64,000 nucleotides of DNA from a virus, in the IMG/VR virus record IMGVR_UViG_3300031857_000053, positions 32,001 to 96,000 of that record. The stretch is one strand, 5' to 3'. Numbering within the stretch: position 1 is the stretch's first letter; each line of letters begins with the position of its first letter. Positions 21,930-41,189 of the stretch are shown one piece after another. The position numbers were made by a program, and so were the translations under genes. A model generated the notes under the pieces. The model did no database searches. It saw only the letters and a list, made by a program, of their open reading frames with translations, and was not told where the DNA came from.

Positions 21930-24900
21930 ATGATTTGTAATTTAGCTAATAATGAATCTTATAAACCTTTCCGAAAATATATCTTTAAAAAGTTATCTCT
22001 AGCTCCAGAAGGTTTTACATTAGAATCTTTTACTAAAGATATCTATAGAAAAGTATATGATAATACTACTGGTACTCCTGAAGATAAACATGCTAATGCT
22101 ATTAATCATGTTGCAATAGGAACTATATTTTTAAATCGTATTCAAGCATTAGAACCTTCAGTTTATGATACTATTAAAGATATAGATTTTAATAAATTTA
22201 TAAAACTTGTAAATAATATTAGTAAATCAGAACCTGATTTTTCTTCATTAGAAGAAATGTTAGGTTTGAAAAATAATCCTGTTGAAGAACTTAAAGAACT
22301 TAATGCTGCAGCTGCTGAATCTAGAGATAACAGTACAGCGGGTATACAGATGACATTATTTGAAGGTAGCGATATTAAAGTTAACGAAGAAGATGAACCA
22401 GCTGATACCACAAATAATAATATGGTAACTGCTACTGAAGAATATCAAGGTAAAGATACTGTTCAAGCGGATCAAGATAGAGAAACTATAAATATAGATA
22501 ATCCTAAATCTCCAGATTATTATAAAGCGAATCCTTTATATAGATTTTATTATAAAGTTAAAAGAGGTGTTTTAAAATTATTACAAAGACCAGGAACTAA
22601 TTTTGATAGTTCTCAAATTACTATTCCTTATAATGGAAAGAAAGGTGTATACTTAACAGTAATGAGTTCTAGTAAATTAAGTAGAGATGATTTTAAAGAA
22701 GATCCTACAATAGGAGGTAGCAATGATAAAAAGTTTATTTACGATGCTGGTGAACCAGTGTTTGTTTTAACTGATGTAGATGGTATTCCAGTTAAGTTTA
22801 ATGAAGAAGGTCAATTTGATGAAAATGGTAAATTATCTTATCATAAATTTAGAAATATTTATTCAACTCAAGTAAAAGATGGTAAAGTTTCTTTATACAA
22901 AAGTGCTAATCTAAATGCTTTAGATGATGTAAAAAGAGTAGATCTTTTAAAACAAAAATTAATGAAGCTTAATCCAGGGCTTAGTGAAAAAAATGCTAAA
23001 GCTCAAGCTGAAAAAACAATACTTGATCAACTTCAAATTATATATGATATTAGACAAGCTCTTAAAGCTAATCCAAATTTAATAGTTAAGACTGTTATAA
23101 ATGGTGGTTCAATGGGAGCTGTAAAAAAAGATATGAGTGTCAAAACACCTCTTGAGAATTTAACAATAGGTAATAGAGATTTTACTATTTATGCTGTAAA
23201 AAGTGATAGCGAAAATTCTGGATACACTTATACTAACACTGATGCTACAGGTTCTTATGATGTTGAAATAACTCGTCCTGATATTAGTCAAGTTGAAGGA
23301 TTAACAGATACAATTGTTTCTATATTATTTGATAAAGGTATAAGTAAAGATAAAGGAGTTTCAAAAGCTATTACTGCTGAAACTAGAAAAGAATTATTAC
23401 AAAATTATATATTTACTAGAACTGAAGGTTTAGATATGTTTGTTAATGAAGATGGTGGGTATACTGTTAAAATAGGAGGACAAGAAATTTATAGATTAAA
23501 AAATAAAAATTATACTTCAGTTGAAGAAGCTGCTCTTCTTGAAAAAAGAAAAAGTGCTGAAAAATTAGTTCGAGAATATTTTACTACGCTTGCTCCTCAA
23601 GCTGAGATCTTAGAAAAAGATCTTAATGATGTTGACATGAAAAATATAATTGAAGGAACTATTGATAAAGTTAGAGATCAATTTAAAAAAGGATATGTTT
23701 TTTATAATACAGAAAATAAAAAGTATTATAGAATAGGTTATCCTATACATCATATTAATGCTAAATATCAAAATGCTACTTATCCTGGTTTAACTCTTTC
23801 TAAAGAAGGAAACAATACAATATTTACAATTGATCGTAATGCTTCATATAATAACTATATAAAGAAAAATTTTACAATACCTTTTGAGTTAAATGAGAGT
23901 GGAGAGATTCCATCTCTTAATGCTTTTTATACTTATGAGTATGCTGAGGGTGAATTAAATAAAATATATAAGCCAGCTGAATCTACATCAGCTCAACCAT
24001 CTACTAGTGTTAAACCTGCTACTAGAAAAACATACTCTGGGAAAGTAACTAAGTTGACACTTAATCAAATATTTGTATTTGGAAGTAATCCTGAAGGAAG
24101 ACATGGTGCTGGTGCTGCTAAAGATGCTAAAGATTTATTTGGTGCAAAGTATGGACAAGGAAGAGGGATGCAAGGTCAATCTTATGCACTTGTAACTAAG
24201 AATCTTAAAGCTGGATTTGTTGAACCTAGCACAGGTATAACATATAAAAAAGCAGGAGAAAAGAGTGTTTCAAAAGAACAAATAATTGAAAACATAAAAG
24301 AGCTATATTCAGTTGCTAAAGAAAATACAAATAAAGAATTTTTAATACCTGATTACTCTAAAAGCAATCTTAATGGTTATACAGGTCAAGAAATGGCAGA
24401 TATGTTTAGTGCTGCTGGACCTATACCAAATAATATTGTGTTTCATAAAAACTTTGATAAATTAATTACTACTCAACCATCTACTAGTGTTAATCCATTA
24501 GTAGAAGCAGGAATTAAACCTTCTGATATGTTTGGTAATGCTGCTAAAGATATTCAGATGGCATCTGAATCTACTCAGTTTATTGGATTTGGTACAATAA
24601 TGAAAGAAGGTAATGTATCTTCTACAGATAAATATGCTAAAGCTTGGGGTACTAAAGCTAATACAGGAGTGTATACAGCTGGTGATACTATAATGGTATC
24701 AGGAAGTGGTAACTTTGGTAGAGGAGGTGTTGATAAAACTGTTGAAGCACAAGCTATTAGAAAAACACTTAGTGAAAAATATAAACCTTTATTAGATAAG
24801 GCTATAGAAGCAGGTGCATCTTTTAGAATTGGTAATCAATATGCAAAAGGTAATTTGTCAGATCAATTAGTTGCAGATTATTTACAAAAAAAGGGTTATA

Positions 24901-27900
24901 CTGAAGAAAAACTTAATGGTTATTCTAGATGGGTATCTCCTACCAAAACTACTCAACCATCTACTAGTGTTAATAAAGGTGTAGAAATATCTTCTAATGC
25001 TAAAGGTTTAGCAGCGGCACTCACTAATCCTACAGAGTTAGCTAAATCAAAAGGTAATATTAAACAATCTTATCCTATATATTTTCAATGGTTAGATAAA
25101 AATGGAGAAGTAAGAGATTCAAACTTTAAAGATGTTGAACAAGCTTATCAAAAATTAAAAGATAATTCTGAAGCTAAAACAAAACCTACTAAAGAAAATA
25201 GTAATAATTATAAACTAATGGTAGATTTGATAAAAGCTAAATTAGAACAACATCCCAGATTAGTTTTAGAAATAACTAAACAAGGAGGTTCAGCTTGGAT
25301 ATTATCTTCTACACATCAACCAACTAAACAAAATACTGTTTGGGAAACAGGTGGACAAAACTGGTTTATTCAAGCTCTCAATGATGCTTATTTATCTACA
25401 CAACCATCTACTAGTGTTTCTGTAGATACTAAAGCTGATATTACTTTACCTACTACACCTGATCAACAAAATACTAATTCTATTGATCAAGCTCTTAATA
25501 TTATTGATGATGCAATTAATAATTTTGATAAACTTAAAGCTTTAAAACTTATTGATCAAAAAGCTACAGTAGAACAAATAGAAGCAGCTAAAAAGTGGTG
25601 GGAAAACCATCCTATGTCTAGTAAAATTCCGCTCTATGTTTTATTCAATGCTGTTAATACTAAAAATCCAACATCAATTGCTAATTGGACATTAGATGGT
25701 ATTACACTATATCAAGGTGCTGATTACTCTGATTTGTATCACGAAGCATGGCACGGGTTTACTCAGATGTTTTTAACTAAAGAACAGAAAGAAAATCTTT
25801 ATAAAGAAGTAGGAAAAAAATCTGGTGGTTTTACAGATTATAAAGGAAACTATACTTTATTTAAAGATGCTAAACCAAAACAACTAGAAGAATATTTAGC
25901 TGAAGATTTTAGAAATTATATGTTATCTGGAGGTAAGAAGATTGCTGGTAAAGCTCCTGTTAGAAATAAAATTTTTAAGTTTATTGCTGATATATTAGAA
26001 TGGTTATTTGGAAATCTTACAAGAGAACAAATAGCTAATGGTACAGAAAGCTTAAGCACTATTCATGACTTATATGAAAAACTTCGTGTAGGTAATCTTA
26101 GTGAGTATACTTTCTCTCAAAGCAATGCTCAATATGATAAGCTTAGTAAAGGAGAGATTTTAGCTACAAGAAATACTGATAAACCTGTTGACGATATAGA
26201 TACTAAAAACTATATCTTAAATATGGTTGATTCTTTTTTATCTCAATATGTTGATAGAGTTTCTGAAGGAAAAAGAAAAAAATATATTGCTAATGCTAGA
26301 CTTCAAGCTGAAGCTAGAGGAGAAACTTTTGTAGAATCTACAGCAGAACTTTCATATAAATATACCGCAACATTATTAAAAACAGCAGAAGGTAGAAAGT
26401 TAGCTTATGGTTATGCTCAAGAAATGATTAAAGCTATTCATGATGGACTTGTATTATTACAACAAAATGAAAGTAGTGAAATTATTCGTGCTAATAGAAA
26501 AAAAATAATTGATACTTTAAGTTGGACTTATAATAACTTTGGAGATATAAATAATCTTAAAAATAATAAGATAGATAAGGAGGGTAGATTTCAAAATGTT
26601 ATTGCGTTTCATACTGCTAAAAGTAGATTATTTACTAAACAAGAAAAAGAACTTTTCTTTAGTGAAGATGCGCTTAATGAAGAAGATTTATTTTTAATTG
26701 GAAGAGATGGTTTAGGAAGTGTAGGTGGTAATGAAAAATCATCTAAAGAATTAGCATCAGAAGATATCCTTATTATGATGAATAGTTTACATGAGGTAGA
26801 TGCTAAAGGTAATACTATATATGTAGAAGGAACTGAAGTTGAAATAGAAACTAAACAAGGTGTTAAGCTTAAGATAGGTGTACCTAAGCTTCAAGATTTT
26901 GATGTTACTTGGAATATTCTATCTAAGAAATTAGAAAATAATCAAGATGCTGAGAACATGTACGCGATCTTAAGTGATCTTGCAAAGTCAAAACCTAATC
27001 TTCCATTTAAACAATTATTAAATAAACTTGGTCCAATAAAAACTGCGGGATCAGCAGAGTTTAGATTATGGACTAATTTTTGGCAAACTTTTAATTTATC
27101 TAGAGTTGGTTTAGTATATACTAAAGTTAATATAACAACTAAAACAGAGAGTAAAGGTGAGGTTAAAGAATTAAATTTTGATAATTGGGAATTTACAGCT
27201 AGACCTACTAAAGCTACCACTAGTATAAATACAATTAAAAAAAATTGGGATTATGCTTTTAGAATGAAAGATAAAGGTGATTATATCGGTAAAGATTCTC
27301 TTGGACAAAATTATCTTTTATTAGATAAGATTTTAGAAGATTTTAAAGATAATATAAAAGGAAAAGAATTTGAGTTTTTTAAAGCAATAGGTATAGATTT
27401 TGATACAAATAATGAAGATATTCTTAAAGAAGTTTCTTCTAAAAATTCTTTAGATACAGCTAAAAGAATTTATAATATTATTAAAGCTTTATCTAATGCT
27501 AAATATAAAGAAGAACCTCTTATAGGAAAACCTAAATATACTATATATGCTCCATCTCAATTATTTAAAGAAATATATGAAATAGGTGAAGATAAACAAT
27601 ATGTTTGGAAAGATAAATTTGAAATAGATTCTCAAGGTAATAGACGTAAAGTAGGAACTGAAAAAAAATTTTTAGTAGATATAGGTTATAAAACATCAGG
27701 AGAAGGAACAAGATTTGATAACTTAGCTGAAATTCAAGCTGAGTATTCTGATAAATGGGGAACTAATCAAGTTACAAATGCAGAAGGTAATACTCAATTT
27801 GATTTAACATTAAATAATTTTCTTACTGTTTTAAAGAATACACTTAATCAAGTACAAGATGTAAAAGATGCTAACGGCAAAGTTATTATACCTGCATATA

Positions 27901-30900
27901 AAGTTTTAATTAGTCTTCCATGGATGAGTAATTTAGATGTAGATAAAAATCCAGATGCTGAGTCTTCTATTTTATTAAATTCTTTATTTGATCTTAATAA
28001 AAATAGTACAAAATATGGTGAAAGAATAAAAGATGAAAAAACTAAATCTGGATATGTAGAAGTACAATTAAAAAATCTTAGTGGAGTAGCATTTAATAAA
28101 GATGATGTTTATGATGAAAAGAAATCTACTTCTTTATTTAATTCAGATCCTTTAACAAAACTAGTAGCAGATTTTCATACTGGTTTGATGAATGGAAATT
28201 TTGAGTTAATGCGTCACTCAGATAAAGGAACATCTTTTAGTTTCTTTACTACTTCTTTAGATAAAAAGAATATTAATAATAGAAATAAATATTTATATGT
28301 TGATACTGCAGATTTTGTTACAAGTTTAGGAACAAAGAATGCTATTAATAAATATATTTTTCCAACTTTAAATTCAGAATTTAAGCGAATAAAAAAGTTT
28401 AGAAATATTAAACAAGCAGTAGAAGATGCTAGAAAAGAAACTGATCCGGAAAAAAAGAAGGATATGTTTAAAGCAATTGGTAATACTGATTTTAATTATA
28501 TAGAAAAAGGATCTTCTTTTGTAACATTTCAAGGTGTTTTATCTCCAGAAACTAAAGTAAAAATACTTAAGCAACTAGATAAAAATAGTTTAACAGAATA
28601 CTTAAATACTCCAGAAGGTTTTGAATTAAAAGTTGAAATTGGAAAAGATATTCAAAATTATTTTAATAATCAAATTGAAGCTGTAAGTAAAAAGTTTCCT
28701 GTTAGAAGAAGTGGTGTTAAACTTATAAGTGGTGATATTATTAAAAAAATAAAAGATCATGTTACAGCTAATTATACTGAAGGATTAGGTCTTTCACAAA
28801 CAGGAAAAGATATACTTAGAAATACTGATTTTAATAAAGTAGCTTTAAGATCTTTTGTAATTAATTCTTGGATACATAATACTGAAAGTATCAAATTAGT
28901 TTATGGAAACCTTGCTCAATATAATATGGCTAAGGAAGAATTTCATAAGAGAAATGCTGGTTCAAGTTCTACTGGTACACTTTATAGAACTGATAAAGCT
29001 GCAATGGATTATGTAAATAATATTCTTAATGGTGGTGATACATATGCTAAATCAATAGGACAAACTAATAGATATTATGATGGAACTCTTAATACAGCAA
29101 TTGTACAAGATAGTGTTCAAAGATCTGTTTATATAGAAGATTATTCTAAAGACTTAATTGCTGAACAATTAAAAAGAAATGGTGGAAATCAACGAGAAGC
29201 TGAGAAAAAAGTTTTTGGTTACGATGAAAAAAATAATAAAGTTGGTACTCTAGAAAAACCAATTAAGGGTGGATTAATTACAGCATATACTGATATGAAA
29301 GAAGGAGATGGTCAAGGTTGGGTAACTTTTGATTCATATAGAATGCTATTAAACTTAGAAGGTAAGTGGTCAGATTCACAAGAAAATTTATATCAAAAAA
29401 TAGTAAAAGGTGAACAAGTTTCTAGTGCTGATATAGCTTTCTTTTTTCCTCCACAAAAGTTACAATACTGGGGACCTCTTGGTAACAGATTATCTGGTAA
29501 AGCTGCAATAGGACAAAAGATTAATTCTGATGTACAGCTTACAGCTATGCACAAGTTTTCTTTAGTACCACTTATTCCTACTGTAATTAAAGATAAAAGA
29601 ATTCAAAAGCTCCACGATAAGATGGTTCGAGAGCAAGTGGATTATGTAACATTTGAATCCGGATCAAAGATTAGTAATATTACAAGTGCTGAAAAGTTTG
29701 GAGAGAATGGCAAACAAACTTTTGATCTTTTTTACGCAGATAATAAGCGTAATATTAGTGAGGAACCATTTACAATCAATCCTATTTATGTAAACTATTT
29801 AAAGAATCAGTTAGAGATAGCACCTAAGTTTAAAAAGAAAGTAACTTTTTCTACTCAGCTTAGAAAACTTATTGAAGATGGTTTAGTAGAGAATGGTGTG
29901 CCAATTGATTTTGGAAGAAATTTATCTCGTGAAAAAAGAATTGAAGCTTGGGATGCTATTACAACAGAAGATGCTAAGATGGCCGCATCTCCTAAGTATA
30001 AGATCTATAAAACATATGAGAATAAATTAAAGAAACTTACCGAGCTTAAAAGAGATCAACTTTTAGAAGAGATGGGTTGGAAGATGGTGAATGGTAAACC
30101 AGTTGGTACAATAGAGAACTTAGTTAGATTTGTTAAAGCTGAATTAGAAAGACAAAATTTAGGAGATCATGAAATAGATTTCTTAGATGTAGTTGATGGT
30201 GGTACAAAGCTTAAAACAGATGCTTCATTTTCTTTGTCTGCAGATAAGATTGAAAAGTTACTTAATTCTATTGTAGTAAATAGATTGATCAAACAAAAAA
30301 TTAATGGTGAAGCTTTAATCCAAGTATCTACTGCTGGTTATGAAAATAATGAAGCTTGGGATGCAGCAAGAGGTGCTACTGAAGAAGAGTTAGAAAAGTG
30401 GGGAACAGATGATCTTCCTACTTATAGAAAAGGAAAAGATGGAATTACTAAAGCAATGAAAGTGAAAGTTGCTTTACAAGGAAAGTTTTTATCTCTACTT
30501 AATCTTAATCATAATGATGGTCAAACTATAGCTGTTTATGATATTGTTAATGGTAAAAAAGTTCTTAATCTAGAATCATCTAGAACAAGACTTAATTCCA
30601 TGATTAAAAATGAAGAGTGGTTAAATAAAGAAAATCATCGTAAGATGATTACTATGGTTGGTGTTCGTATTCCAGTACAAGGATTAAATTCTATGGAGTT
30701 TATGGAAGTATACGAATTCTTACCAGAGGAAGCAGGTAATATTATTATACCTCCAACAGAGATTGTAGCTAAATCAGGAGCTGACTTCGATATCGATAAG
30801 CTTACAGTGATGATGCCTAATATAAAAACCAAAATAAATAAAGCTAAAATTACTAATGCTTTATTAAGAGAACTTGGTGAAAAAAATCCAACTTTAGATT

Positions 30901-33900
30901 TTAGTAGAGATAATATTAATATGCTACTTGATTTTGAAAAAGGATCTGGTGGCGCATATACTCTTACCGAAGAAGATTTAAATACACTTCGTATTCTAGA
31001 AGAAACTAGTGAAGTAAGTGTAGTTTATCCTACTGGAGATAATTCTATAGAAGGATTAGAGAATGATCTTATTTGGAATATAAAAGATATTTTAGCATTG
31101 CCGGAAAACTTTGTTAATCTTATTACACCTAATAGTACTGATACAGTTCAACCAATTGCTACTAAACTTGCACCTTTAGTTAAAGATTATGATCAGATGC
31201 AGAAAACAGCTGGTGATATTACTACTTTATCTAAAGAAGATCAAGCTTTATTAAATGAGAATCCTAATGTGATGGAAGGAACTAGAGTATTGGAAATACT
31301 TTATAATATTTCTAAGCAACAGTATAATCAGATTGGTAAAGAGACTTTAGGTATTGGAGCTGTAGATAATACTTTCAATATTCTATTGAATAGAATTGGA
31401 GCTTATATGAATGCTTATGCTACTGTAAAATCATTTAATGGTAAAAATAAAACTACAATTAGACAAACATTAAAGTTTAAACATAATACTCTTAATATAA
31501 ATGGTCAAGATGTTATTTCTTTATCGCATTTATACGATAATAATGATTTAAATAGAGTTTCAGATATTATCTCTCAAATGATGAATGGTTGGGTGGACGT
31601 TGCAAAAGATGCTTGGATTTTTGATATTCAAGGTAACAAGGATCTTTCTCCTACACTTTTGTTTATGATTCAAGCGGGTGTCTCAATAGAGAATGCTATT
31701 TATATGGTTTCTCAACCTATGGTAAGAGAATATATAAGATTAAAGAAGACCGCTCAAAGTAGTGTATCAGATGTTATTACTGATGTTGATACTAAATATC
31801 CAGGTTTTGCAGCAAAGAAAATGATCATTGATAAATACTTTTCACAAGATGCAGATTTTGGTTCTCAAATTGCTGCAGCAAATGATATTATAAATGATGA
31901 AGTACGTGAAAAAAAATTAAATGCGATCTATGGTAATGTTAATGTCGCTAATACTAGTGCTGAAATTATAAATAGAGTTTTTGGTGATAATGATATTGAT
32001 ACTAAAAAGATGGAAGAGAATATTCAAAAATATTCTGCTGCTGAAAAAAATGGAGAAGATACTAATAAATTATTGTTTAATGATGAATATCAAAAAGCTA
32101 TATTTTTACATTTCTTACAGATAGAACAGATGGGATCTGCTCTTACTAATGTTAAAAAGAATATGAATTTTGACACTAAAAAAGATGCTAGTATCTATGA
32201 GGCACAAAATAGAATGGTTATGATTGATGCTCTTTCAAAAGAAGATCGATTCCCATCAAAGATGATAGATAAACTTATTACAGATTCTCCTATATCAAGT
32301 TTCTATATACAAGAATTTCAAACACAGATTTGGGAAAAATTATTACCACTTCGAACTAATGAAGTATTTAATAAATGGTTAAGTGGTAAGATGGGTGATC
32401 AAGACTTTAAAAATTATGTTGAAGAGAATTTTGGAGAAAATATGATGGAAAAAGCTATTCTTTCTTTGAGAAATAATCTTGTACCATATATATTTCAAAA
32501 TGAACTTAAACAATTTGATTTAAGAACTTTAGATGGATATAAAGGAAACATAGTTGAAATAAGTGAAAAAGGAGAAACAGAACAAGAAAATCTTACTAAA
32601 AAACAACAAAAAGAAGGAGTTAGTGTTCTAAGTATTGGAGCTTTCTTTAAAGATGGAAAAATGTTTATTGATAAAAAAAGTTTAGATAATCAATATAACA
32701 ATGCTTCTTATTTAGGTAATGAAAATAGCACTTATAAAGAATTAGGATTAGCACCAGTTAGTGTTGGAACTTTTAGTTCTTTAAGCGAATATCATCACTT
32801 TGTAGTAGAGAGAGAATATCTTAGAAATCTATATAAGAATACAGATAATGTTAAAGATAATATAGAATACAAAGAAGCTCTTAATGATGCTTTTGAAAAA
32901 AATCCAAAAGGAGAAGAAAGTGAAGATGCGTATAAAAAAAGAATAAGTAAAATTGCTTTTGAAAGTTTCTTAAGAGATAAAGCTTTAGATAATATATTTA
33001 ATAATACAAAATTATTTACAGGGAATAAAACAGCTGCAGATAAATTAGGTTATATAAAATCTCAGTATAAAGATCTTTTACAAACATATCCTGTATTACA
33101 AGTTCTTAATCCTTTATCTACAATATCTGCCGGTAAACTTTATTCTAATATACAATTACAAGATAACTTAGATGATTCAGAAAAAGTTAATTCTTATTAT
33201 AAAAATATTAGAGATCTAGCAGATCCTACCGTGGTAAAAGTTCCTGGAGATCCTGAAGCTAATAAATATATAAGTGATTTCTTTACTAGTTTACCTATTA
33301 TTGGAACATTACAATCAGGTTCTAATACTAAAACTAGATCTTCTTTTACTAGATTAATGCCTTATGATTTATATCTAAGATTAATTGAAAAACCTGCTCA
33401 AAAATATGTTGAAAATATGAGTGATCTTTTATTAGATGTTTATTATTATAAGTGGTCTCAGCAAAATTCAATCTTAAATAAAAATAAAAATAAGTTTGAA
33501 GATTATTATATTACTGAAATTACTTTAGATCGTCTTTTAAAAAGTTCTAGAAAAAATCTTGATAAAGTAGAAATAGAAAAACAAATTAGAGGTTTACAAG
33601 ATAAAAATCAAAGATTTGGATTAAGAGAAACTGAAGATATTTTTTATAAACAACCTAGTGGAGCAAGTATACTTGATACATATAAACTACTTAAAAGAGA
33701 TGATAAAGAAACTGATGAAAGCTATAATCCTAGAAAAGTTAAATATATGCGCGAGTTATTAGAAGCTAATCCTGATAAGATTTTTGTTTATAATAATGAG
33801 AAAGGTCTTGATAGATCTATACCTAAACAGGGAACATCAGATAGGTTATTTAGAAATCAAGGGCAATCTAATGCTTTTGGATTGAATACTTATAATCAAT

Positions 33901-34304
33901 ATAATCTTACAGAAACTACTTTTATTAAAGATGTTGATGGTGATGTTAATCCTAATTTTAAAATAGATTTTGATGCTCAAGTAAAAGAATTACTTCGTCT
34001 TCAAAATGAAGAAGGAAAAGAAATAGTTTTTCCATCATCTGGATTTTTACAAGAACAAATGGGTTATCAATTAGAAGAATCTAATTCTTTAGGTAAGAAT
34101 ACTTATAGTTCTATAGTAGAAAAAAAATTAGGACAAAAAACTTACGAATATGCTTCTCAAGTTTTATTTGAGAAATTTGGCTACGTTAATAGAAATTACG
34201 ATATTACACCCATTGGAAAATTAGTAATAGGAGCTAAACAAAAAGAAAGTAAATCTATTAGTGATGAAATGGTTAGAGATTTAATGTCACATTGTTATTC
34301 ATAA
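21930..34304 (+). CDS. Virion-packaged DNA-dependent RNA polymerase polyprotein (crAss-like/phi14:2 gp66-type) with zincin peptidase and accessory modules, 4124 aa
   Basis: Catalytic GADFDIDKL (DFDID at 30783-30797) preceded by RIPVQG; also DGQGW, FESGSK, STQLRK and VDVAKD motifs; HEAWH zincin at 25740-25754. Confidence 0.9.
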   Translation: MICNLANNESYKPFRKYIFKKLSLAPEGFTLESFTKDIYRKVYDNTTGTPEDKHANAINHVAIGTIFLNRIQALEPSVYDTIKDIDFNKFIKLVNNISKSEPDFSSLEEMLGLKNNPVEELKELNAAAAESRDNSTAGIQMTLFEGSDIKVNEEDEPADTTNNNMVTATEEYQGKDTVQADQDRETINIDNPKSPDYYKANPLYRFYYKVKRGVLKLLQRPGTNFDSSQITIPYNGKKGVYLTVMSSSKLSRDDFKEDPTIGGSNDKKFIYDAGEPVFVLTDVDGIPVKFNEEGQFDENGKLSYHKFRNIYSTQVKDGKVSLYKSANLNALDDVKRVDLLKQKLMKLNPGLSEKNAKAQAEKTILDQLQIIYDIRQALKANPNLIVKTVINGGSMGAVKKDMSVKTPLENLTIGNRDFTIYAVKSDSENSGYTYTNTDATGSYDVEITRPDISQVEGLTDTIVSILFDKGISKDKGVSKAITAETRKELLQNYIFTRTEGLDMFVNEDGGYTVKIGGQEIYRLKNKNYTSVEEAALLEKRKSAEKLVREYFTTLAPQAEILEKDLNDVDMKNIIEGTIDKVRDQFKKGYVFYNTENKKYYRIGYPIHHINAKYQNATYPGLTLSKEGNNTIFTIDRNASYNNYIKKNFTIPFELNESGEIPSLNAFYTYEYAEGELNKIYKPAESTSAQPSTSVKPATRKTYSGKVTKLTLNQIFVFGSNPEGRHGAGAAKDAKDLFGAKYGQGRGMQGQSYALVTKNLKAGFVEPSTGITYKKAGEKSVSKEQIIENIKELYSVAKENTNKEFLIPDYSKSNLNGYTGQEMADMFSAAGPIPNNIVFHKNFDKLITTQPSTSVNPLVEAGIKPSDMFGNAAKDIQMASESTQFIGFGTIMKEGNVSSTDKYAKAWGTKANTGVYTAGDTIMVSGSGNFGRGGVDKTVEAQAIRKTLSEKYKPLLDKAIEAGASFRIGNQYAKGNLSDQLVADYLQKKGYTEEKLNGYSRWVSPTKTTQPSTSVNKGVEISSNAKGLAAALTNPTELAKSKGNIKQSYPIYFQWLDKNGEVRDSNFKDVEQAYQKLKDNSEAKTKPTKENSNNYKLMVDLIKAKLEQHPRLVLEITKQGGSAWILSSTHQPTKQNTVWETGGQNWFIQALNDAYLSTQPSTSVSVDTKADITLPTTPDQQNTNSIDQALNIIDDAINNFDKLKALKLIDQKATVEQIEAAKKWWENHPMSSKIPLYVLFNAVNTKNPTSIANWTLDGITLYQGADYSDLYHEAWHGFTQMFLTKEQKENLYKEVGKKSGGFTDYKGNYTLFKDAKPKQLEEYLAEDFRNYMLSGGKKIAGKAPVRNKIFKFIADILEWLFGNLTREQIANGTESLSTIHDLYEKLRVGNLSEYTFSQSNAQYDKLSKGEILATRNTDKPVDDIDTKNYILNMVDSFLSQYVDRVSEGKRKKYIANARLQAEARGETFVESTAELSYKYTATLLKTAEGRKLAYGYAQEMIKAIHDGLVLLQQNESSEIIRANRKKIIDTLSWTYNNFGDINNLKNNKIDKEGRFQNVIAFHTAKSRLFTKQEKELFFSEDALNEEDLFLIGRDGLGSVGGNEKSSKELASEDILIMMNSLHEVDAKGNTIYVEGTEVEIETKQGVKLKIGVPKLQDFDVTWNILSKKLENNQDAENMYAILSDLAKSKPNLPFKQLLNKLGPIKTAGSAEFRLWTNFWQTFNLSRVGLVYTKVNITTKTESKGEVKELNFDNWEFTARPTKATTSINTIKKNWDYAFRMKDKGDYIGKDSLGQNYLLLDKILEDFKDNIKGKEFEFFKAIGIDFDTNNEDILKEVSSKNSLDTAKRIYNIIKALSNAKYKEEPLIGKPKYTIYAPSQLFKEIYEIGEDKQYVWKDKFEIDSQGNRRKVGTEKKFLVDIGYKTSGEGTRFDNLAEIQAEYSDKWGTNQVTNAEGNTQFDLTLNNFLTVLKNTLNQVQDVKDANGKVIIPAYKVLISLPWMSNLDVDKNPDAESSILLNSLFDLNKNSTKYGERIKDEKTKSGYVEVQLKNLSGVAFNKDDVYDEKKSTSLFNSDPLTKLVADFHTGLMNGNFELMRHSDKGTSFSFFTTSLDKKNINNRNKYLYVDTADFVTSLGTKNAINKYIFPTLNSEFKRIKKFRNIKQAVEDARKETDPEKKKDMFKAIGNTDFNYIEKGSSFVTFQGVLSPETKVKILKQLDKNSLTEYLNTPEGFELKVEIGKDIQNYFNNQIEAVSKKFPVRRSGVKLISGDIIKKIKDHVTANYTEGLGLSQTGKDILRNTDFNKVALRSFVINSWIHNTESIKLVYGNLAQYNMAKEEFHKRNAGSSSTGTLYRTDKAAMDYVNNILNGGDTYAKSIGQTNRYYDGTLNTAIVQDSVQRSVYIEDYSKDLIAEQLKRNGGNQREAEKKVFGYDEKNNKVGTLEKPIKGGLITAYTDMKEGDGQGWVTFDSYRMLLNLEGKWSDSQENLYQKIVKGEQVSSADIAFFFPPQKLQYWGPLGNRLSGKAAIGQKINSDVQLTAMHKFSLVPLIPTVIKDKRIQKLHDKMVREQVDYVTFESGSKISNITSAEKFGENGKQTFDLFYADNKRNISEEPFTINPIYVNYLKNQLEIAPKFKKKVTFSTQLRKLIEDGLVENGVPIDFGRNLSREKRIEAWDAITTEDAKMAASPKYKIYKTYENKLKKLTELKRDQLLEEMGWKMVNGKPVGTIENLVRFVKAELERQNLGDHEIDFLDVVDGGTKLKTDASFSLSADKIEKLLNSIVVNRLIKQKINGEALIQVSTAGYENNEAWDAARGATEEELEKWGTDDLPTYRKGKDGITKAMKVKVALQGKFLSLLNLNHNDGQTIAVYDIVNGKKVLNLESSRTRLNSMIKNEEWLNKENHRKMITMVGVRIPVQGLNSMEFMEVYEFLPEEAGNIIIPPTEIVAKSGADFDIDKLTVMMPNIKTKINKAKITNALLRELGEKNPTLDFSRDNINMLLDFEKGSGGAYTLTEEDLNTLRILEETSEVSVVYPTGDNSIEGLENDLIWNIKDILALPENFVNLITPNSTDTVQPIATKLAPLVKDYDQMQKTAGDITTLSKEDQALLNENPNVMEGTRVLEILYNISKQQYNQIGKETLGIGAVDNTFNILLNRIGAYMNAYATVKSFNGKNKTTIRQTLKFKHNTLNINGQDVISLSHLYDNNDLNRVSDIISQMMNGWVDVAKDAWIFDIQGNKDLSPTLLFMIQAGVSIENAIYMVSQPMVREYIRLKKTAQSSVSDVITDVDTKYPGFAAKKMIIDKYFSQDADFGSQIAAANDIINDEVREKKLNAIYGNVNVANTSAEIINRVFGDNDIDTKKMEENIQKYSAAEKNGEDTNKLLFNDEYQKAIFLHFLQIEQMGSALTNVKKNMNFDTKKDASIYEAQNRMVMIDALSKEDRFPSKMIDKLITDSPISSFYIQEFQTQIWEKLLPLRTNEVFNKWLSGKMGDQDFKNYVEENFGENMMEKAILSLRNNLVPYIFQNELKQFDLRTLDGYKGNIVEISEKGETEQENLTKKQQKEGVSVLSIGAFFKDGKMFIDKKSLDNQYNNASYLGNENSTYKELGLAPVSVGTFSSLSEYHHFVVEREYLRNLYKNTDNVKDNIEYKEALNDAFEKNPKGEESEDAYKKRISKIAFESFLRDKALDNIFNNTKLFTGNKTAADKLGYIKSQYKDLLQTYPVLQVLNPLSTISAGKLYSNIQLQDNLDDSEKVNSYYKNIRDLADPTVVKVPGDPEANKYISDFFTSLPIIGTLQSGSNTKTRSSFTRLMPYDLYLRLIEKPAQKYVENMSDLLLDVYYYKWSQQNSILNKNKNKFEDYYITEITLDRLLKSSRKNLDKVEIEKQIRGLQDKNQRFGLRETEDIFYKQPSGASILDTYKLLKRDDKETDESYNPRKVKYMRELLEANPDKIFVYNNEKGLDRSIPKQGTSDRLFRNQGQSNAFGLNTYNQYNLTETTFIKDVDGDVNPNFKIDFDAQVKELLRLQNEEGKEIVFPSSGFLQEQMGYQLEESNSLGKNTYSSIVEKKLGQKTYEYASQVLFEKFGYVNRNYDITPIGKLVIGAKQKESKSISDEMVRDLMSHCYS
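23994..25418 (+). repeat. Four identical 18-bp direct repeats CAACCATCTACTAGTGTT (QPSTSV) delimiting three in-frame domain cassettes
   Basis: Copies at 23994, 24474, 24954 and 25401 (spacing 480, 480, 447 nt). Copies 2 and 3 share 27 bp (ACTACTCAACCATCTACTAGTGTTAAT). Confidence 0.95.
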
Positions 34305-34307
34305 GAT

Positions 34308-37300
34308 ATGTTAGTTTGCCCAAATAAAAACACAACTGAGTGGAAAGATCTTGTAGCCACCGTAGGAGAATTTGAAGCTTTTAGAGACTTCATAGAAAGT
34401 GATTATAATATTAGAGATCCTAAAGTAGTTTTAGAAAAACTTATTAAAAGAGGTATAACTACTACTTCTGAAAAAGTTATTGAATCTTCTATTCAAGAAG
34501 TAAAACCAGGAGTACCAGAACTATTTGATTCTAATCCTGAATTAGCTAATGTTGTATATGAAGCTTTAGGGTTTATTGCAAACATTAATAAATTAAAAAT
34601 TCAAGATTTTAAAACTAAAATAGGCAACTCTGAAAATATTCAAGATGTAGTAGAAAAACTTAAAAAGTATGTAGAAGAATTTAAAGATGCTTATTTTGTA
34701 AATTCCACAAATGAAGATATTCAATCTGATATTTATTTTATAAAAAAAGAAGCAGAAGATAAGTTAAAACAATTTCAAAAAATAGACGACAATATTAAAT
34801 TTGAACTTGTTACAACAAAAGGATTATCTAATAAACAAATAGATGTATATAAATCTGTTATTGATTTTATAAGTAAAAATCCTACGGCTAACCCAAATTC
34901 TGAAAACTATAATCCTAAAGTAATAGAATCATATTTAAAATATGAGCATGAACTAACAGACAAAGAATTAAGAAATATATTTAAAGGCAAAGAAAAACAA
35001 AGGCTTTTAGATTTTATATTTTCACAATTAAGTTTAGCTCAAGCAAGTACAGAAGAAGGAATAAGTGAGTTGCCTGAAAATTTAGTAGAAAAAGAACTAT
35101 CTAAAGTAACCCCACAACAAAAACAACAAGCTCTACAACTCTACTCTCAATATCTTGATTCTATATTTCCTCAAAATACCATAGTATATAGAGGTAGTGA
35201 AAAAGGAAGAACACAATTTAATACAAGAGGATTTTTCACAGAAAAACTATCTTATGCTAAAGAATATGCCTTCGATAAGGGATTTGTTGCTAAATCTGGT
35301 GAAGGTATAGTTAATACATTCTTGATTAATACAGCTAATGTAAAGAATGTAGGAGAAATGAATACTAAATCTATAGAAAATGAAACACAAGATTCTGTGT
35401 TAAAAGGTGTAGACAAAGGTAGAGCTAGAGAATCAGGTGTAGTATATGCAACTACTTCAAAGAACTTACATGAATTAGGTGGTAAACAAGATATAGAAGG
35501 ATTTAAAGAGTTTGTTAATGAACCACAAACTATTATTAAAGAAAGTGTATCAAATCCTTTAGTAGAAGATTTTTTTAAAATTAATGAGCAGGAGATGACC
35601 ATTACTCCATTAGATACTAATAATGCTAATGCAGTAGGGGCACTAACAGCTTTAGCTACTCAATTATCAGAACAATTAGTAGTAGATGGTGAAAAATTTA
35701 AATATCAATTTATAACAGAAGAACAAGCTGCTGCTTTACTTGCTGATAGAAATGAAGAGTGGGATCCAAGTAAAAAAGCTTTTTTCGTTGGCGATACTGT
35801 TTATTTAGTTGGAACAAACCTTAATCTAAATGATGTATTCCACGAGTTCTCTCATCCTTTCCTTAGAAGTATAGCTAAAGCTAATCCACAATTATTTGAA
35901 AAACTTTATCAAACTTTAGCATCTACTCCAGAAGGACAACTTATTATAGATTTTGTAAAAAATAATTATAATGTAGAAGAAGGTAGTATCTATTTTAAAG
36001 AAGAAGTATTAGTACAAGCTCTTACTGCTATTGCAGATATAAATAGAAACAACTTAGTTCCTAGTTCAGGATTCTCAAACTTTATTAAAAATCTATTATA
36101 CCAAATAAAGCAATTTATTAGAAAAGTATTTGGATCTAAAGCTGATGCTAAATCTCCAATAAAAATATCCAGCTTAAATGAAAATACAACTTTGAGAGAA
36201 TTATCTGAAATGCTTAAGGGTGGTACCAAGTTTGAGATTGTAGAAGATAGTTTAACGGAAGAAGATTTTGTAGCTTATAATAAATCGCGTGATGAGATTC
36301 TTACAGATTTAATGAAGCTAAAACAATCAGATAAGATAGCATTAACAGTTCTTGCTCATGATACAGCTCTAAAACAAATTGAGACAGTAATGAGAAGTGG
36401 GAATTATGCTGAGATAGCTAACCTATTAGCTGATGAATTTAAGCGAGGAGATCTTAATGAGATTAAGCGTAACTTAGTAAAGTTTGCTAAGCCTATGGAG
36501 GATATGCTTCTTGATAAAAAGAATGCTATCGAATATACCAAAGCTCATGTTGAAGCTTTCATGGCTTCTCTTTTAAGGATGGATAAAATGCTTAAGACAA
36601 TAGAGAAGCATTTAGAAAGTTTGAGATCAGATATGGATAATATTGATAATCTTCAAAAAGCTTTTTATTATGATTATCTTCTTTCAGATTGGAAAAAATT
36701 TGTTGATCAATTAAGAGAAGCTGCAGATGGAGCAAGGATACCATCTGATTCCGCATTAGAAAGTTTAATATCTAGTCTTGATGGTTCAATTAGAAAAGCT
36801 AAAACATTAACTGGAGAATTTTATCAAGAAGGATCTAAAGATGTTTTATATGCTCAGTTATTACCAATGGCAGAAAAACTAGCTGAGAAGTATAGTAAAA
36901 TTTTTGAAAGTTTAAATAAACCGGGTAAGGTTGCTTCTGATAAAATACAAAATATGTACTATAAAGAGTACTATGGTATGACAAAAGCAGAACACGAGAG
37001 ACATACAACACTCGAAGATCTTAATAGAAAAGGTACTTTAGGAACACAAGAACTTAAAGAGCTTGAAGGTTTAAGATTGTTATCGATGAATGGTGCCCAG
37101 ATTACAAAATATAAAATTGAGATGGCGCTTAAGGGTACATATCGCGATGCTAATGTTTGGAACTCTTTCTTCGAAGGATATACTTTTAATACCGATCCTG
37201 TAATAGGTGGTTTTGCAACTTTTGTTAAAGATGCTATGTCGGATGCTATAGCTAATGCTATGGATAAGATGAATAATTATGCTGCAGATATGAGTGGTCT

Positions 37301-40300
37301 ATTAACAGCAGCTGGTTATAATCCTTCTAATCCAACAGGTCTTATTGATAAAATAGGAAGACCAGAACTTATAGGTAGAGTAAATCCGGATACAAAAGAA
37401 TGGGAAGAAAAACCAGTTTGGACTTTGATGAGTTTACATAAAAATTGGAAAATTGAATTAGATAGAAAGCGTAGAGATATAGATAATGCTCAAAGAGATT
37501 ATATAGAAAATGGTACTGATGAAAATAAGAAAAAACTTTCTGATGCTATTGCTTCTAGAAAAAAATTAATGCGAGATTATTTTTATCAAGAGTATGATCA
37601 AAAAGTTTATTTACGTGAAAGATTATTAGAAGATCCTTTAGGTAGAGCTGCAGCTTATGAGATAGAAAAAGTAATGGATGAGATTACTAAATTAAATCGT
37701 TTAGCTATAAATCAACTTGAAGAAATTAAAATTGCTGAAAAATTAGATTTATTATGGCAAGATTATAATCAATTATTTTCTGAGATTGATCTTAATGGTA
37801 ATCGTAAAACAGGTGAAGCTTTATTAATTGCAAAAAGATTAAAAGAATATCGTGCTGCAGATATTGATCCAGCTACAGGTAAATCTTTTAGAGAATCTAA
37901 ATTAATTCGTGGATTATTTGAAAATACATTAGCTCAATTTGAACAAGAACTTATAGATATTGAAAAGCTTGTTCCAGGTTCTGATGAATTTAAATTAAGA
38001 CGTAGCGAGTGGATAAGAAAAAATACTCGTGTAGTTGTTAAACCAGAATTTTATGAGCAAATAAAAATTTGGACTGCTGCTGTTGCTGAGATCTTAGCTA
38101 AGTTACCTGATGCAGAAAGAAAAAAAGTTACTATTGCTCAGATCATGAGTGATATTACTGATTTAACATCTGGTAATAGAGATGAAAGTGGACAAATAAA
38201 TGGTACTAATTTTACTCCAGATGCTGCTTCTTTTATTAAAGGGCAACAAGAGAAAATGATTAAAGCTCAAGAAGAATTTGATGGTATCAATGGTTTAACT
38301 AAAAAAGAATCTAAATATCTTTCTTATCTATTTGATATCATTAATGAAGGTGGTGTATTAGATGCTGATGAAAAAGCTGATATGAAAGCTCTTTTAGAAA
38401 AGAAAAAAGATGGATTAAGTTTCTTTGATAAACAAACTTTATACGCTTTATTTGCTAAACTTAGAGATTTTAAAAAGAAAGATGCTACTTCTTATTATAC
38501 AGCTATTTTTAATAATCATTTAAGTAAACTTGATACTAATATACTTCAACCATTATTAGAAGGAAGAAATATAAATAGTGCTACAGCTAATTTAGTTTTA
38601 GAAGAGTATATAGTTAATAATTTAATTAATCAAAATACTCCGGAAGGACAACAATTTAAAGATTGGTTTTTAAAAAACCATATACAAAAAGAAGTCTATG
38701 ATAAAGATTTAGGGGAAACAAAAAAAGTTTGGGAAAGAATTTATATTTGGAATATAAATAAACCAGTTGATGAAAATTATTATGATAAACATACTTTTGT
38801 AAATTCTAATGGAGAGTCAGAAACATTACCTGGATTACCAGCTTATAAATATTATAAGAGTGTTGTAAAATCTCAATATAGAACAGAAAGAATAATTGGT
38901 AAAACAGTGGATAATATGAGAAACTGGTTACCAAGAGAAGATGTTCCAAATAGTCCATATATCAATGAAGATTATTTAAGATTACAAAAAGAAGATCCTG
39001 CGCATTTTGCTGTTCTTGAAAAGATGAAAGAACATCATATAAAAAATCAAGAGGGATTAGGTTATAAAAGTCGTCTTTATTTAGATGTTCCACGTTATAG
39101 AAAAAATAATGCAGAGTTACTTAAGACTAGAAGTATAAAACAACTTTCTAAATTAGCTGCTCAAGGTAATCTACCTTTTCTTTCAATTATAATGGAAAGA
39201 GCTAGAGATTTCTTTAGAAGAGCTAAAGATGAATATGGTTCTCAATATGGTTGGGATGATACTAAGATGTTAGTTAGAGCTGATATGTTTAGCAATGATG
39301 TAATTAGTGTTCCTATTACAGGTTTATATGATCTTAATATTGATGATGTATCTACAGATCTTAATGAGTCTATTAATAGATATATGTTTTCTGCAGAAAG
39401 ACAAAAAAAATTAATTGAGATTAGTCCTATTGCTAAAGCTTTAAGACAAACACTTAATGATCCAAAAAACATGCTTGATGATACCACTAAATTAGATAAG
39501 TGGAATTTTCTTAATAGAGGAATGATGACCTATATAAAAAAGAAAGGTTATTATGTTAGAAAAAGCGCTGTAAATAATTTTATTGAAAGAGAGTTTGAAG
39601 GTAAAACAACTGCTGGTTGGAGTAAGGATATTCCTTGGATGCAAAATTTAGCTAATCTAGTATTAGGAAGAGCTTCTTTTGCTTTTTTTGCTTTGAATAT
39701 TCCATCAGCTTTAAAGAATGTTTTTAGTGCTAAATATCAATCTATGATTGAATCATCTGGTGGACAATATGTAGATAGGATGAGTCTTCTTAGAGGTGAA
39801 GGATGGGGTTTTAAAACTATGATGCAAGTTTCATCAGAGATATATAAACGTGGAGTTAAGCCTTTGAATATGCAAATTGCAGATAGCTTTGATATTGTTT
39901 CTGATAGAGCTGAACAAAAGTTACCAGAGTCTATGTCTAGAAACTTTACTGAAGATGTAGCTAGTATGACTTGGTTATATAATTTTAGAAAGTGGACTGA
40001 AGATGAGGCTCAAATGCAATTGGGATCATCTATGTTATACAAGAGAAAGATTATGATGGCGGGTAAAGAAGTTAGTTATATGGAAGCTTGGCAGCTTAAA
40101 GATAATAAACTTGCTCTTAAAGATGGTATAGATATTAGATATGCAAATAAGCCTACTGAATATTTAGTTCAAGAAGGAGATACACTTTCTTCACTTGCTA
40201 AAAAATTCAATATGCCAGAGGATGCTATTAAGAGATTATATGAAGAAGAAGATCTTTACGAAGGTAAAAAAATCAAAATAAACAATATCTACTTTAAAGA

Positions 40301-41189
40301 GATGCGTAACCAGATCAATACTGTGAAGGTTAAGCTTAATGGTGCCTATGGTCAATTTGATCAACCAGAAGCTCAGCGTTACCTTGCTTATCGTATGATC
40401 TCTTTCTTAAAGAGATATTTTACTCCTATGTTAATCAATCGTTGGGGATATAGTAGCCAAGGAGGACAAATACGTGGTAGGATGAACTATGGTCTTAATG
40501 ATCTAGATACAGGTTTCTATACTAGTAGTATCCGATCTGTTTATCGTATTGCTAGAACAGGTGGAGAATATTGGCACTATATGACACCTGAAGAAAGAGG
40601 AGCTTGGGCTAAGTGGGTTACTGAGATTGGTGGAATTATAGCTATCTCAATATTACTAGGGCCTCTATTTGGATGGGATCCAGAAGATGAGGAGAGATTT
40701 GAAAAGCTTAGACAAAAGAGTGGTGCTATGCCATTACTAGGTCTTACTGAAGATGATCCTGATCATCCATTTAAAGTAGGTGGATGGTTAGAGACACAAG
40801 GATTGATGTTAGCTTTAGGTGTTAAAGCCGAAGCACAAGCTTTTGTTCCTTGGCCAGGTATGGGATTAAATCAATATTATGGTACCCTTACCGATGCTAG
40901 TTCAATAGGATTTGGTGCTACTCTTAAATCATATATGGAGATGTTAGAGTTTGCTTATTATGATATGACAGGTAGCTCAAAAGGTACCTACGCGAAAGAT
41001 GCTGGTGCATATAGATGGCAACAAGAAGGAGGATCTAAGTTTATTACAACACTAATGAAAACAATAGGATTTACTGGTGGTACTGTTGAACCTTGGAGAT
41101 CAATTAAGAATAATCCTCAGATGAATCCGGGTGGTGGTAAAAAGAAAGATGAAGATGAAAATCAAAGTGAGAAAAGTGGTGAAAAATAA
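34308..41189 (+). CDS. Giant ejected polyvalent protein with ART-like module, zincin peptidase, LysM-like domain and C-terminal hydrophobic helices, 2293 aa
   Basis: MxxCPN....W..L start; IVYRG..GFF...A..YA ART-like segment (35181-35516); HEFSH at 35841-35855; YLVQEGDTLSSLAKKF LysM-like segment at 40161-40280; hydrophobic IGGIIAISILLGPLF. Confidence 0.75.
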   Translation: MLVCPNKNTTEWKDLVATVGEFEAFRDFIESDYNIRDPKVVLEKLIKRGITTTSEKVIESSIQEVKPGVPELFDSNPELANVVYEALGFIANINKLKIQDFKTKIGNSENIQDVVEKLKKYVEEFKDAYFVNSTNEDIQSDIYFIKKEAEDKLKQFQKIDDNIKFELVTTKGLSNKQIDVYKSVIDFISKNPTANPNSENYNPKVIESYLKYEHELTDKELRNIFKGKEKQRLLDFIFSQLSLAQASTEEGISELPENLVEKELSKVTPQQKQQALQLYSQYLDSIFPQNTIVYRGSEKGRTQFNTRGFFTEKLSYAKEYAFDKGFVAKSGEGIVNTFLINTANVKNVGEMNTKSIENETQDSVLKGVDKGRARESGVVYATTSKNLHELGGKQDIEGFKEFVNEPQTIIKESVSNPLVEDFFKINEQEMTITPLDTNNANAVGALTALATQLSEQLVVDGEKFKYQFITEEQAAALLADRNEEWDPSKKAFFVGDTVYLVGTNLNLNDVFHEFSHPFLRSIAKANPQLFEKLYQTLASTPEGQLIIDFVKNNYNVEEGSIYFKEEVLVQALTAIADINRNNLVPSSGFSNFIKNLLYQIKQFIRKVFGSKADAKSPIKISSLNENTTLRELSEMLKGGTKFEIVEDSLTEEDFVAYNKSRDEILTDLMKLKQSDKIALTVLAHDTALKQIETVMRSGNYAEIANLLADEFKRGDLNEIKRNLVKFAKPMEDMLLDKKNAIEYTKAHVEAFMASLLRMDKMLKTIEKHLESLRSDMDNIDNLQKAFYYDYLLSDWKKFVDQLREAADGARIPSDSALESLISSLDGSIRKAKTLTGEFYQEGSKDVLYAQLLPMAEKLAEKYSKIFESLNKPGKVASDKIQNMYYKEYYGMTKAEHERHTTLEDLNRKGTLGTQELKELEGLRLLSMNGAQITKYKIEMALKGTYRDANVWNSFFEGYTFNTDPVIGGFATFVKDAMSDAIANAMDKMNNYAADMSGLLTAAGYNPSNPTGLIDKIGRPELIGRVNPDTKEWEEKPVWTLMSLHKNWKIELDRKRRDIDNAQRDYIENGTDENKKKLSDAIASRKKLMRDYFYQEYDQKVYLRERLLEDPLGRAAAYEIEKVMDEITKLNRLAINQLEEIKIAEKLDLLWQDYNQLFSEIDLNGNRKTGEALLIAKRLKEYRAADIDPATGKSFRESKLIRGLFENTLAQFEQELIDIEKLVPGSDEFKLRRSEWIRKNTRVVVKPEFYEQIKIWTAAVAEILAKLPDAERKKVTIAQIMSDITDLTSGNRDESGQINGTNFTPDAASFIKGQQEKMIKAQEEFDGINGLTKKESKYLSYLFDIINEGGVLDADEKADMKALLEKKKDGLSFFDKQTLYALFAKLRDFKKKDATSYYTAIFNNHLSKLDTNILQPLLEGRNINSATANLVLEEYIVNNLINQNTPEGQQFKDWFLKNHIQKEVYDKDLGETKKVWERIYIWNINKPVDENYYDKHTFVNSNGESETLPGLPAYKYYKSVVKSQYRTERIIGKTVDNMRNWLPREDVPNSPYINEDYLRLQKEDPAHFAVLEKMKEHHIKNQEGLGYKSRLYLDVPRYRKNNAELLKTRSIKQLSKLAAQGNLPFLSIIMERARDFFRRAKDEYGSQYGWDDTKMLVRADMFSNDVISVPITGLYDLNIDDVSTDLNESINRYMFSAERQKKLIEISPIAKALRQTLNDPKNMLDDTTKLDKWNFLNRGMMTYIKKKGYYVRKSAVNNFIEREFEGKTTAGWSKDIPWMQNLANLVLGRASFAFFALNIPSALKNVFSAKYQSMIESSGGQYVDRMSLLRGEGWGFKTMMQVSSEIYKRGVKPLNMQIADSFDIVSDRAEQKLPESMSRNFTEDVASMTWLYNFRKWTEDEAQMQLGSSMLYKRKIMMAGKEVSYMEAWQLKDNKLALKDGIDIRYANKPTEYLVQEGDTLSSLAKKFNMPEDAIKRLYEEEDLYEGKKIKINNIYFKEMRNQINTVKVKLNGAYGQFDQPEAQRYLAYRMISFLKRYFTPMLINRWGYSSQGGQIRGRMNYGLNDLDTGFYTSSIRSVYRIARTGGEYWHYMTPEERGAWAKWVTEIGGIIAISILLGPLFGWDPEDEERFEKLRQKSGAMPLLGLTEDDPDHPFKVGGWLETQGLMLALGVKAEAQAFVPWPGMGLNQYYGTLTDASSIGFGATLKSYMEMLEFAYYDMTGSSKGTYAKDAGAYRWQQEGGSKFITTLMKTIGFTGGTVEPWRSIKNNPQMNPGGGKKKDEDENQSEKSGEK

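Follow-up and report, generated by a model that had tools for sequence, protein, structure and literature searches.

Botstein's modular theory has phages evolve by exchange at short linkers of conserved sequence; in T-even tail-fibre genes and in the CdiA/Rhs polymorphic toxins, too, swapping makes use of conserved motifs at the junctions. A long debate has set mosaicism via such linkers against random illegitimate joins that are filtered by selection, and it has mostly concerned gene boundaries. Here we describe a short DNA joint that stands inside a single coding sequence, where it parts three single-domain cassettes in the predicted virion RNA polymerase gene of a crAss-like phage. The DNA analysed, hereafter the window, is a 64,000-nucleotide (nt) stretch, positions 32,001 to 96,000 of the IMG/VR virus record IMGVR_UViG_3300031857_000053; the record is a 107-kb genome that is 91% complete.

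On the protein side, the closest described systems are the virion RNA polymerases of crAss-like phages and the polyvalent proteins. The crAss-like DFDxD protein gp66 of phi14:2 is a virion RNA polymerase that is ejected into the host, and in some phages gp65 (a zincin-like protease), gp66 (the RNA polymerase), and gp67 are fused as one polyprotein (Drobysheva et al., bioRxiv 10.1101/2020.03.07.982082). In 2017, Iyer, Burroughs, Anand, de Souza, and Aravind described the polyvalent proteins, which occur in phages and conjugative elements and include N4-type virion RNA polymerase carriers with an autoprocessing metallopeptidase (MPTase) (PMC5512222). The general concept, in which a polyvalent virion RNA polymerase protein also holds such a metallopeptidase, has been in the literature before, as has the proposal that fused polyproteins are cleaved (PMC5512222; bioRxiv 10.1101/2020.03.07.982082). 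Among the enzymes relevant to the cassettes, the NADAR hydrolases include DarG1 and T4 AdfN, gp30.3 (PMC11543638, PMC11825919); the phage enzyme AdfN strips ADP-ribose off DNA and counters DarTG1 (PMC11825919).

The gene under study is a single open reading frame (ORF) of 4124 amino acids (aa) at 21930-34304 on the plus strand. Judged from its relatives, it would encode a virion polyprotein of a crAss-like phage in which a gp65-like zincin part is fused to a gp66-like crAss-type RNA polymerase. With the phi14:2 gp66 system it shares the DFDxD motif, the giant protein, the predicted zincin-polymerase fusion, and the muzzle and capsid gene context; it differs in that a sequence search of the polyprotein against the chains of the Protein Data Bank (PDB) found no match and in that it carries an internal insertion of three cassettes. 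Macro-fold, Rossmann-like, and NADAR-like domains stand in this one ORF together with a zincin-like region and the RNA polymerase. The locus is like the polyvalent proteins in being a giant protein with several unrelated enzymatic domains and a putative zincin-like peptidase, whose architecture varies between relatives. Unlike them, the carrier here is a crAss-type two-barrel DFDxD polymerase, and the domains are parted by a DNA-identical in-frame joint that marks the breakpoints; the polyvalent-protein study makes no mention of linkers, NADAR, or crAss (PMC5512222).

In our view, this joint is probably a recombination site for in-frame domain shuffling by short-homology exchange between co-infecting phages. 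Its likeness to linkers of the Botstein type lies in a short conserved DNA sequence between non-homologous modules, with which the breakpoints coincide. It differs from them in being intragenic, at domain boundaries, 18 to 24 nt long, in frame, present up to seven times per gene, and common to phages whose backbones are about 30% identical in protein. Of the hallmarks of an integron, neither a recombinase gene (among 89 ORFs of the 91%-complete genome, E ≤ 1e-4) nor a structured site was found here.

The joint, CAACCATCTACTAGTGTT, encodes QPSTSV and has four exact copies in the window, all on the plus strand: joint 1 at 23994-24011, joint 2 at 24474-24491, joint 3 at 24954-24971, and joint 4 at 25401-25418. 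No further match to it exists in the window at up to 3 mismatches, for which the chance expectation is 0.03. All four copies are in frame and place QPSTSV at aa 689, 849, 1009, and 1158 of the ORF, with a copy-to-copy spacing of 480, 480, and 447 nt (160, 160, and 149 codons), so that n cassettes are bounded by n+1 joints, here three by four. Both the count and the spacing confirm an earlier note, made from the sequence of the window, that had reported four identical 18-bp copies delimiting in-frame modules of 160, 160, and 149 aa. The same note had taken the unchanged codons, including TCT and AGT for the two serines, as a sign of conservation at the DNA level or of recent copying. With codon usage taken from the window's seven giant ORFs, the probability of this 18-mer given QPSTSV is 0.013, and that of all six codons agreeing in four copies is about 1e-6; as described below, synonymous variants are also rare, and the claim holds. 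In copies 2 and 3, identity extends over 27 nt. The palindrome ACTAGT, which the note also mentions, has no special role that the data support, as the window has 24 such sites versus about 20 expected, a chance-level frequency; apart from this 6-bp palindrome, no inverted repeat or structure was found in the joint.

We then compared the joint across other phages. The exact 18-mer occurs at 49 sites in 43 IMG/VR contigs; it is always read in frame as QPSTSV within a giant ORF, and its flanks vary. Extended by ACT to a 21-mer, it was found in 66 metagenome stretches of freshwater and marine origin and in 0 of 185,579 prokaryote genomes. Conservation is limited to about 24 to 27 nt, namely (C)TACT, the 18-mer, and RAA. 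Among 135 distinct junction contexts from viral and metagenome contigs, the pairs with a single flank in common number 214 and those with both flanks in common number 4; for a first set of 66 contexts, the corresponding counts are 48 and 0. In 35 of the 214 one-flank pairs, one flank is at least 95% identical and the other is at background (<50%), and the alignments show that identity stops at the joint. Three junction contexts were assembled identically, each in two independent metagenomes, which argues against assembly chimeras. The modules found directly downstream of the joint elsewhere include 2OG-FeII_Oxy_2 (eight times), DUF7831 (six), ART-PolyVal (three), NADAR and cpYpsA (two each), PARP, and a zeta-toxin-like kinase. 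The idea of a swappable in-frame cassette array that is exchanged at the 18-bp site is therefore borne out insofar as modules of many kinds border on the joint and homology ends there. No paper on QPSTSV in a phage context was found, and the joint seems undescribed in the literature searched.

To distinguish conservation of the DNA from that of the peptide, we used 1.56 Mb of relatives that had been collected by protein similarity and hence form a sample unbiased with respect to the joint. This sample holds 10 copies of QPSTSV, 6 of them exact and 4 with a change confined to the third position of the Pro codon; no synonymous change was seen in TCT ACT AGT GTT among these copies. Seven further copies in the sample differ by one non-synonymous base. 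In the 135-context set, 2 of the 13 joint variant types are synonymous, against a neutral expectation of 26%. The variants are thus mostly non-synonymous, the opposite of what peptide selection produces, which points to the DNA, and not the peptide, as what is kept. On sequence grounds, the copies look like one young DNA sequence that is still spreading or being homogenised. The two main forms, C-type (Pro) and T-type (Ser), are often mixed in one contig, and within-contig concordance is weakly above that of shuffles. Such mixing fits a common pool of joints across genomes better than a genome-specific "writer"; homogenisation specific to each genome is weakly supported, as the concordance barely exceeds shuffles.

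The relatives further indicate that the array is an insertion, because the three closest of them (L050, L051, and L126) pass from the upstream region through a P/T/S/E-rich stretch of 40 to 50 aa directly to the zincin region, with no modules. Relatives of the second and third cassettes (M2 and M3) in other contigs reach 76 to 90% identity in aa and 68 to 90% in DNA, on polymerase backbones that are 26 to 41% identical in aa, and nucleotide homology of M2 and M3 begins and ends at the joints. The same cassettes also occur elsewhere behind other linkers (QSSTSV, QPSTIV, TTQEST, TQPQVTV, TQPTVQSV, or none), and other relatives carry different cassettes at other positions. The same modules in fixed order with synonymously diverged linkers, a pattern looked for in the relatives, was not seen. 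The richest array lies at 1663-5067 of contig L131 (IMGVR_UViG_3300035182_001043), where seven joints stand in one gene, at the C-terminal end of the polymerase, and the modules are, in order, unknown, AlkB-like, A1S_2505, canonical NADAR, M2-family, unknown, and helicase. Six of its seven joints are one identical one-letter variant, CAATCATCTACTAGTGTT (QSSTSV). Separately, at 13520-14428 of contig L059, whose polymerase is about 45% identical, an A1S_2505 domain is followed by an adjacent M2-family domain in the same order as here; this pair lies on the C-terminal side of the polymerase, and its separator is ATQPTVQSV, which is not the exact joint.

Altogether, the following course of events would account for these data. 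Three single-domain cassettes, each bounded by an in-frame joint of about 18 to 24 nt, (ACT)ACT-CAACCATCTACTAGTGTT-(RAA), would have entered a disordered stretch between domains that lies immediately ahead of the zincin region. The joint would serve many phages as a common site of DNA recombination, like a Botstein linker but one that connects protein domains. Short-homology recombination inside it would let members of a large crAss-like group from freshwater and marine habitats swap, insert, and delete domains when they infect the same cell. Every exchange would yield a translatable product because the joint is in frame and encodes a flexible linker of Q, P, S, T, and V. The recombination is probably carried out by the phage's own machinery, for which the genes present suggest a Sak4-like AAA_24 ATPase and a PD-(D/E)XK nuclease as candidates. 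The cassettes would be drawn from the polyvalent-protein repertoire (ART-PolyVal, NADAR, macro-like, AlkB-like, SLOG, and helicase domains) and may act early after ejection, either within the polyprotein or once cleaved.

Other explanations of the joint have to be weighed. It could chiefly be a protein signal, with TQPSTSV recognised or cut by the embedded zincin or a head protease and with the DNA identity stemming from recent duplication. In 65 contexts, T at −1 and Q, S, T, S, and V are nearly fixed and K, E, or N is favoured at +1; the last joint is followed, after 108 aa, by a conserved HExxH region; and cleavage of fused polyproteins has been proposed, as cited above. The near absence of synonymous diversity alongside mostly non-synonymous variants is, however, the reverse of peptide selection; cassettes elsewhere stand behind quite different linkers (TTQEST, TQPQVTV, TQPTVQSV, or none); and a protein signal leaves the sharing of one flank across genomes unexplained. 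We regard it as a rather unlikely principal explanation. A cleavage-site role for TQPSTSV would be compatible with a recombination joint but cannot account for the DNA-level pattern. A purely structural alternative, in which the linker is a mere flexible spacer whose copies owe their identity to a recent tandem duplication or to gene conversion and which has no role in exchange between phages, draws on the 27 nt shared by copies 2 and 3 and on the frequency of Q/P/T/S/V-rich spacers between domains in relatives. Tandem duplication is contradicted by the modules between the copies, which are unrelated, and the same DNA occurs in 135 contexts of other phages with breakpoints at the joint; we give this alternative very little credence.

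A dedicated mobilising mechanism acting on the 18-mer, such as a site-specific recombinase or nuclease or a target-site duplication, would make the array integron-like for protein domains. The n+1 joints for n cassettes, the exact recurrence of the sequence at over 100 sites across far-diverged genomes, and the six identical variant joints of L131 are what one would expect of it. It is nonetheless improbable, given that no integrase, transposase, or HNH gene was detected among the 89 ORFs, that nothing in the site other than the chance-level palindrome forms an inverted repeat or a structure, that C- and T-type joints are commonly mixed in a contig with concordance weakly above shuffles, and that the junctions resemble plain homologous exchange. 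In the same vein, we doubt strongly that a phage or host nuclease or recombinase recognising the 18-24-mer drives cassette copying and keeps the joint letter-identical despite a backbone identity of about 30%. Finally, the sharing of one flank might be an artefact of assemblers joining different phages at a short repeat, as every contig compared comes from a metagenome assembly and co-occurring phages have the repeat in common. The reading frame is, however, always kept in ORFs of thousands of codons, the sites come from more than 100 contigs and many samples, and three contexts recur in independent metagenomes as described. In addition, a repeat of 18 to 27 nt is shorter than the final k-mers normal in assemblers. 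An artefact is thus highly unlikely.

Several points weigh against exchange at the joint between co-infecting phages and against the counter-defence role of the cargo considered below. The exchange is deduced from contig comparison; a homology of 18 to 27 nt is short for efficient homologous recombination; selection acting within a single genome does not account for the joint staying identical in phages that have diverged so far; and the six copies of one variant in L131 hint at copying or conversion within a genome. As to the cargo, virion packaging, ejection, enzymatic activity, and cleavage are extrapolated from relatives, the second cassette has no assignable function, the first and third fall short of the Pfam Macro and NADAR thresholds, and the third is assigned from profile comparison and its motif.

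Cassette 1 (M1; 24012-24473, plus strand) was characterised by NCBIfam and PHROG profiles, an AlphaFold2 (AF2) model, and fold searches. It matches NF049995 (A1S_2505_Nterm) of NCBIfam (2.9e-28) and phrog_2072 (4.8e-30). The A1S_2505 family has more than 1100 free-standing homologues, and its domain also occurs within the "putative RNA polymerase" of Kolpuevirus and of cr112_1, at other positions. The AF2 model has a predicted local distance difference test score (pLDDT) of 95.5, and its top Foldseek matches are all macrodomains (alphavirus nsP3, TARG1, DarG, and Poa1p). VIA aligned it with an alphavirus macrodomain (Z 10.2, root-mean-square deviation [rmsd] 3.3, 133 aligned), Mycobacterium tuberculosis DarG (Z 10.1, rmsd 3.0, 127 residues), and TARG1 (Z 9.4), and 24 chains scored Z ≥ 8, nearly all of them macrodomains; matches to designed helical repeats were set aside as low-complexity noise. 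In Pfam, M1 has no match at E ≤ 1, the Macro model included, and its FGSN.xGrHGaGAA segment resembles the macro NAAN..GGG loop by eye alone. By its model, M1 is a macro-fold domain, nearest to the DarG/TARG1/alphavirus type, and the fold matches at Z of about 10 uphold its earlier description as macrodomain-like.

Cassette 2 (M2; 24492-24953, plus strand) has no significant sequence match in Pfam, PHROG, NCBIfam, PADLOC, or the PDB. Its relatives, 183 clusters among 1.84 billion representatives, lie nearly all at differing places within giant phage proteins, the longest of 6057 aa, and these proteins also carry helicase, DUF7831, cpYpsA, RNase H, NADAR, DUF4326, and AlkB-like domains. The AF2 model (pLDDT 92.2) shows a generic three-layer alpha/beta fold. 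Foldseek returned nothing at E ≤ 1e-3 in the PDB or BFVD, a wide VIA search gave only generic Rossmann-like folds, and the best fold matches (Z 5.3 to 4.0) are likewise generic, being methyltransferases, HAD, and flavodoxin. M2 is, according to its model, a generic Rossmann-like domain. The tentative description of M2 as SLOG-like finds no support, either from these fold matches or from an hhalign comparison of its profile with cpYpsA-like modules, the sole SLOG family compared (Prob 0.05%). Comparison of M2 with M1 gave Prob 0.4%, and the cassettes have different family matches, in line with the claim that the three modules are mutually unrelated. DUF4326 was found in 2 of 50 M2-containing proteins scanned. 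We also observed a small free-standing protein, P0211 (259 aa), that consists of an M2-family domain and a C-terminal region with a CxC...CH pattern.

Cassette 3 (M3; 24972-25400, plus strand) probably belongs to the NADAR superfamily as a divergent member, as suggested by hhalign and by its motif. Its homologues are both free-standing and embedded. Aligned with six Pfam-positive NADAR modules from related loci, the M3 profile scored Prob 85.8% (E 5e-6, 81 columns) with co-linear motifs; YbiA (2b3w) matched weakly (E 0.13), also with co-linear motifs, and the nearest ESM Atlas cluster is NADAR (0.89). The residues E1070 (25137-25139), Q1074, and K1077 form E-x3-Q-x2-K, with the spacing of the NADAR catalytic residues E36 and K43 of T4 AdfN, and the motif E and K are retained in at least 90% of 25 homologues. 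On the other side, the NADAR model PF08719 found no match at E ≤ 1 in any of 25 M3-family members, no significant PHROG, NCBIfam, PADLOC, or PDB match was obtained, and about 35 residues in the middle of a canonical NADAR domain have no counterpart in M3. The earlier description of M3 as NADAR-like thus keeps moderate support, from the profile alignment, the ESM Atlas, and the motif, and fails at the Pfam NADAR model.

M3 shares the E...Q..K catalytic motif of the NADAR hydrolases, with the difference that AdfN is free-standing and proven against DarTG1 and M3 is embedded. More generally, M1 and M3 differ from DarG, TARG1, and the NADAR hydrolases in being fused in a virion polyprotein and in lying below the Pfam thresholds. 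By analogy with established work on DarG/TARG1 macrodomains and on NADARs (PMC11543638, PMC11825919), the cassettes could be counter-defence enzymes that travel with the polymerase and remove ADP-ribose or repair nucleic acids, a reading about as likely as not; their release by the zincin is possible but doubtful. Apart from their function, the joints alone delimit a catalogue of single domains that probably enter the host together with the polymerase of crAss-like phages, comprising macro-like, NADAR, ART, AlkB-like, SLOG, kinase, and helicase domains and unknown families such as that of M2. Such a catalogue is a list of candidate counter-defence enzymes, and the joint itself offers a natural design rule for in-frame domain arrays. 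Because one in-frame joint of 18 to 24 nt marks clean breakpoints in more than 100 contexts, within coding sequence and at domain boundaries, the question of linkers can be put to a direct test in which joints are recoded synonymously and set against native ones.

The assignment of the host gene rests on its polymerase and zincin parts. The catalytic motif DFDID of the RNA polymerase lies at 30783-30797 (plus strand) by motif match, and the surrounding GADFDIDK, at aa 2950 of the polyprotein, fits the DFDxD motif of crAss-like virion RNA polymerases. In tblastn searches, the core region around it matched 122 phage records in GenBank, all crAss-like, at 22 to 25% identity; among them are cr108_1 (E 5e-19) and Flavobacterium, Cellulophaga, and Bacteroides phages. 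In IMG/VR, the same region has 113 relatives at 37 to 54% identity, and megablast found no close GenBank phage relative of the whole gene. Downstream of the array, a conserved zincin-like backbone region occupies 25419-26189 (plus strand), with HEAWH at 25740-25754 (aa 1271) and EE..AE..R further downstream. The H, E, W, and H of HEaWH and the EE..AE..R residues are invariant in 32 relatives, and the HExxH region is present in nearly all relatives. The profile of this region has no significant Pfam or PDB match; one member matches Tox-MPTase2 at a non-significant E of 0.0016. The crAss-only tblastn matches, the DFDxD motif, and the conserved HExxH region agree with the identification of the host protein as a crAss-type virion polymerase with HEAWH about 110 aa downstream of the array.

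The rest of the genome is of the same character. A crassvirus muzzle protein gene at 299-5452 (plus strand; Pfam PF25731 crAss_MUZ, 3.2e-23) heads the block of giant virion protein genes, and the genome also encodes Crass_capsid (the major capsid protein), CrAss_Ring_2 (ring protein 2), DnaB, Toprim, UDG, the AAA_24 (Sak4-like) ATPase, and PDDEXK_1 (the PD-(D/E)XK nuclease). The polyprotein has just two cysteines, at positions 3 and 4122, each third from an end. Its C-terminal part of about 280 aa (33450-34301; IFVYNNEKG...AFGLNTY) looks like a separate small domain without a QPSTSV joint, and the last 284 aa have no Pfam match and no relation to the M1 profile. The next giant ORF, in the gp67-like position (34308-41189, 2293 aa), carries a LysM motif near its C-terminus (PF01476, 1.3e-5), which would fit a peptidoglycan-binding ejection protein.

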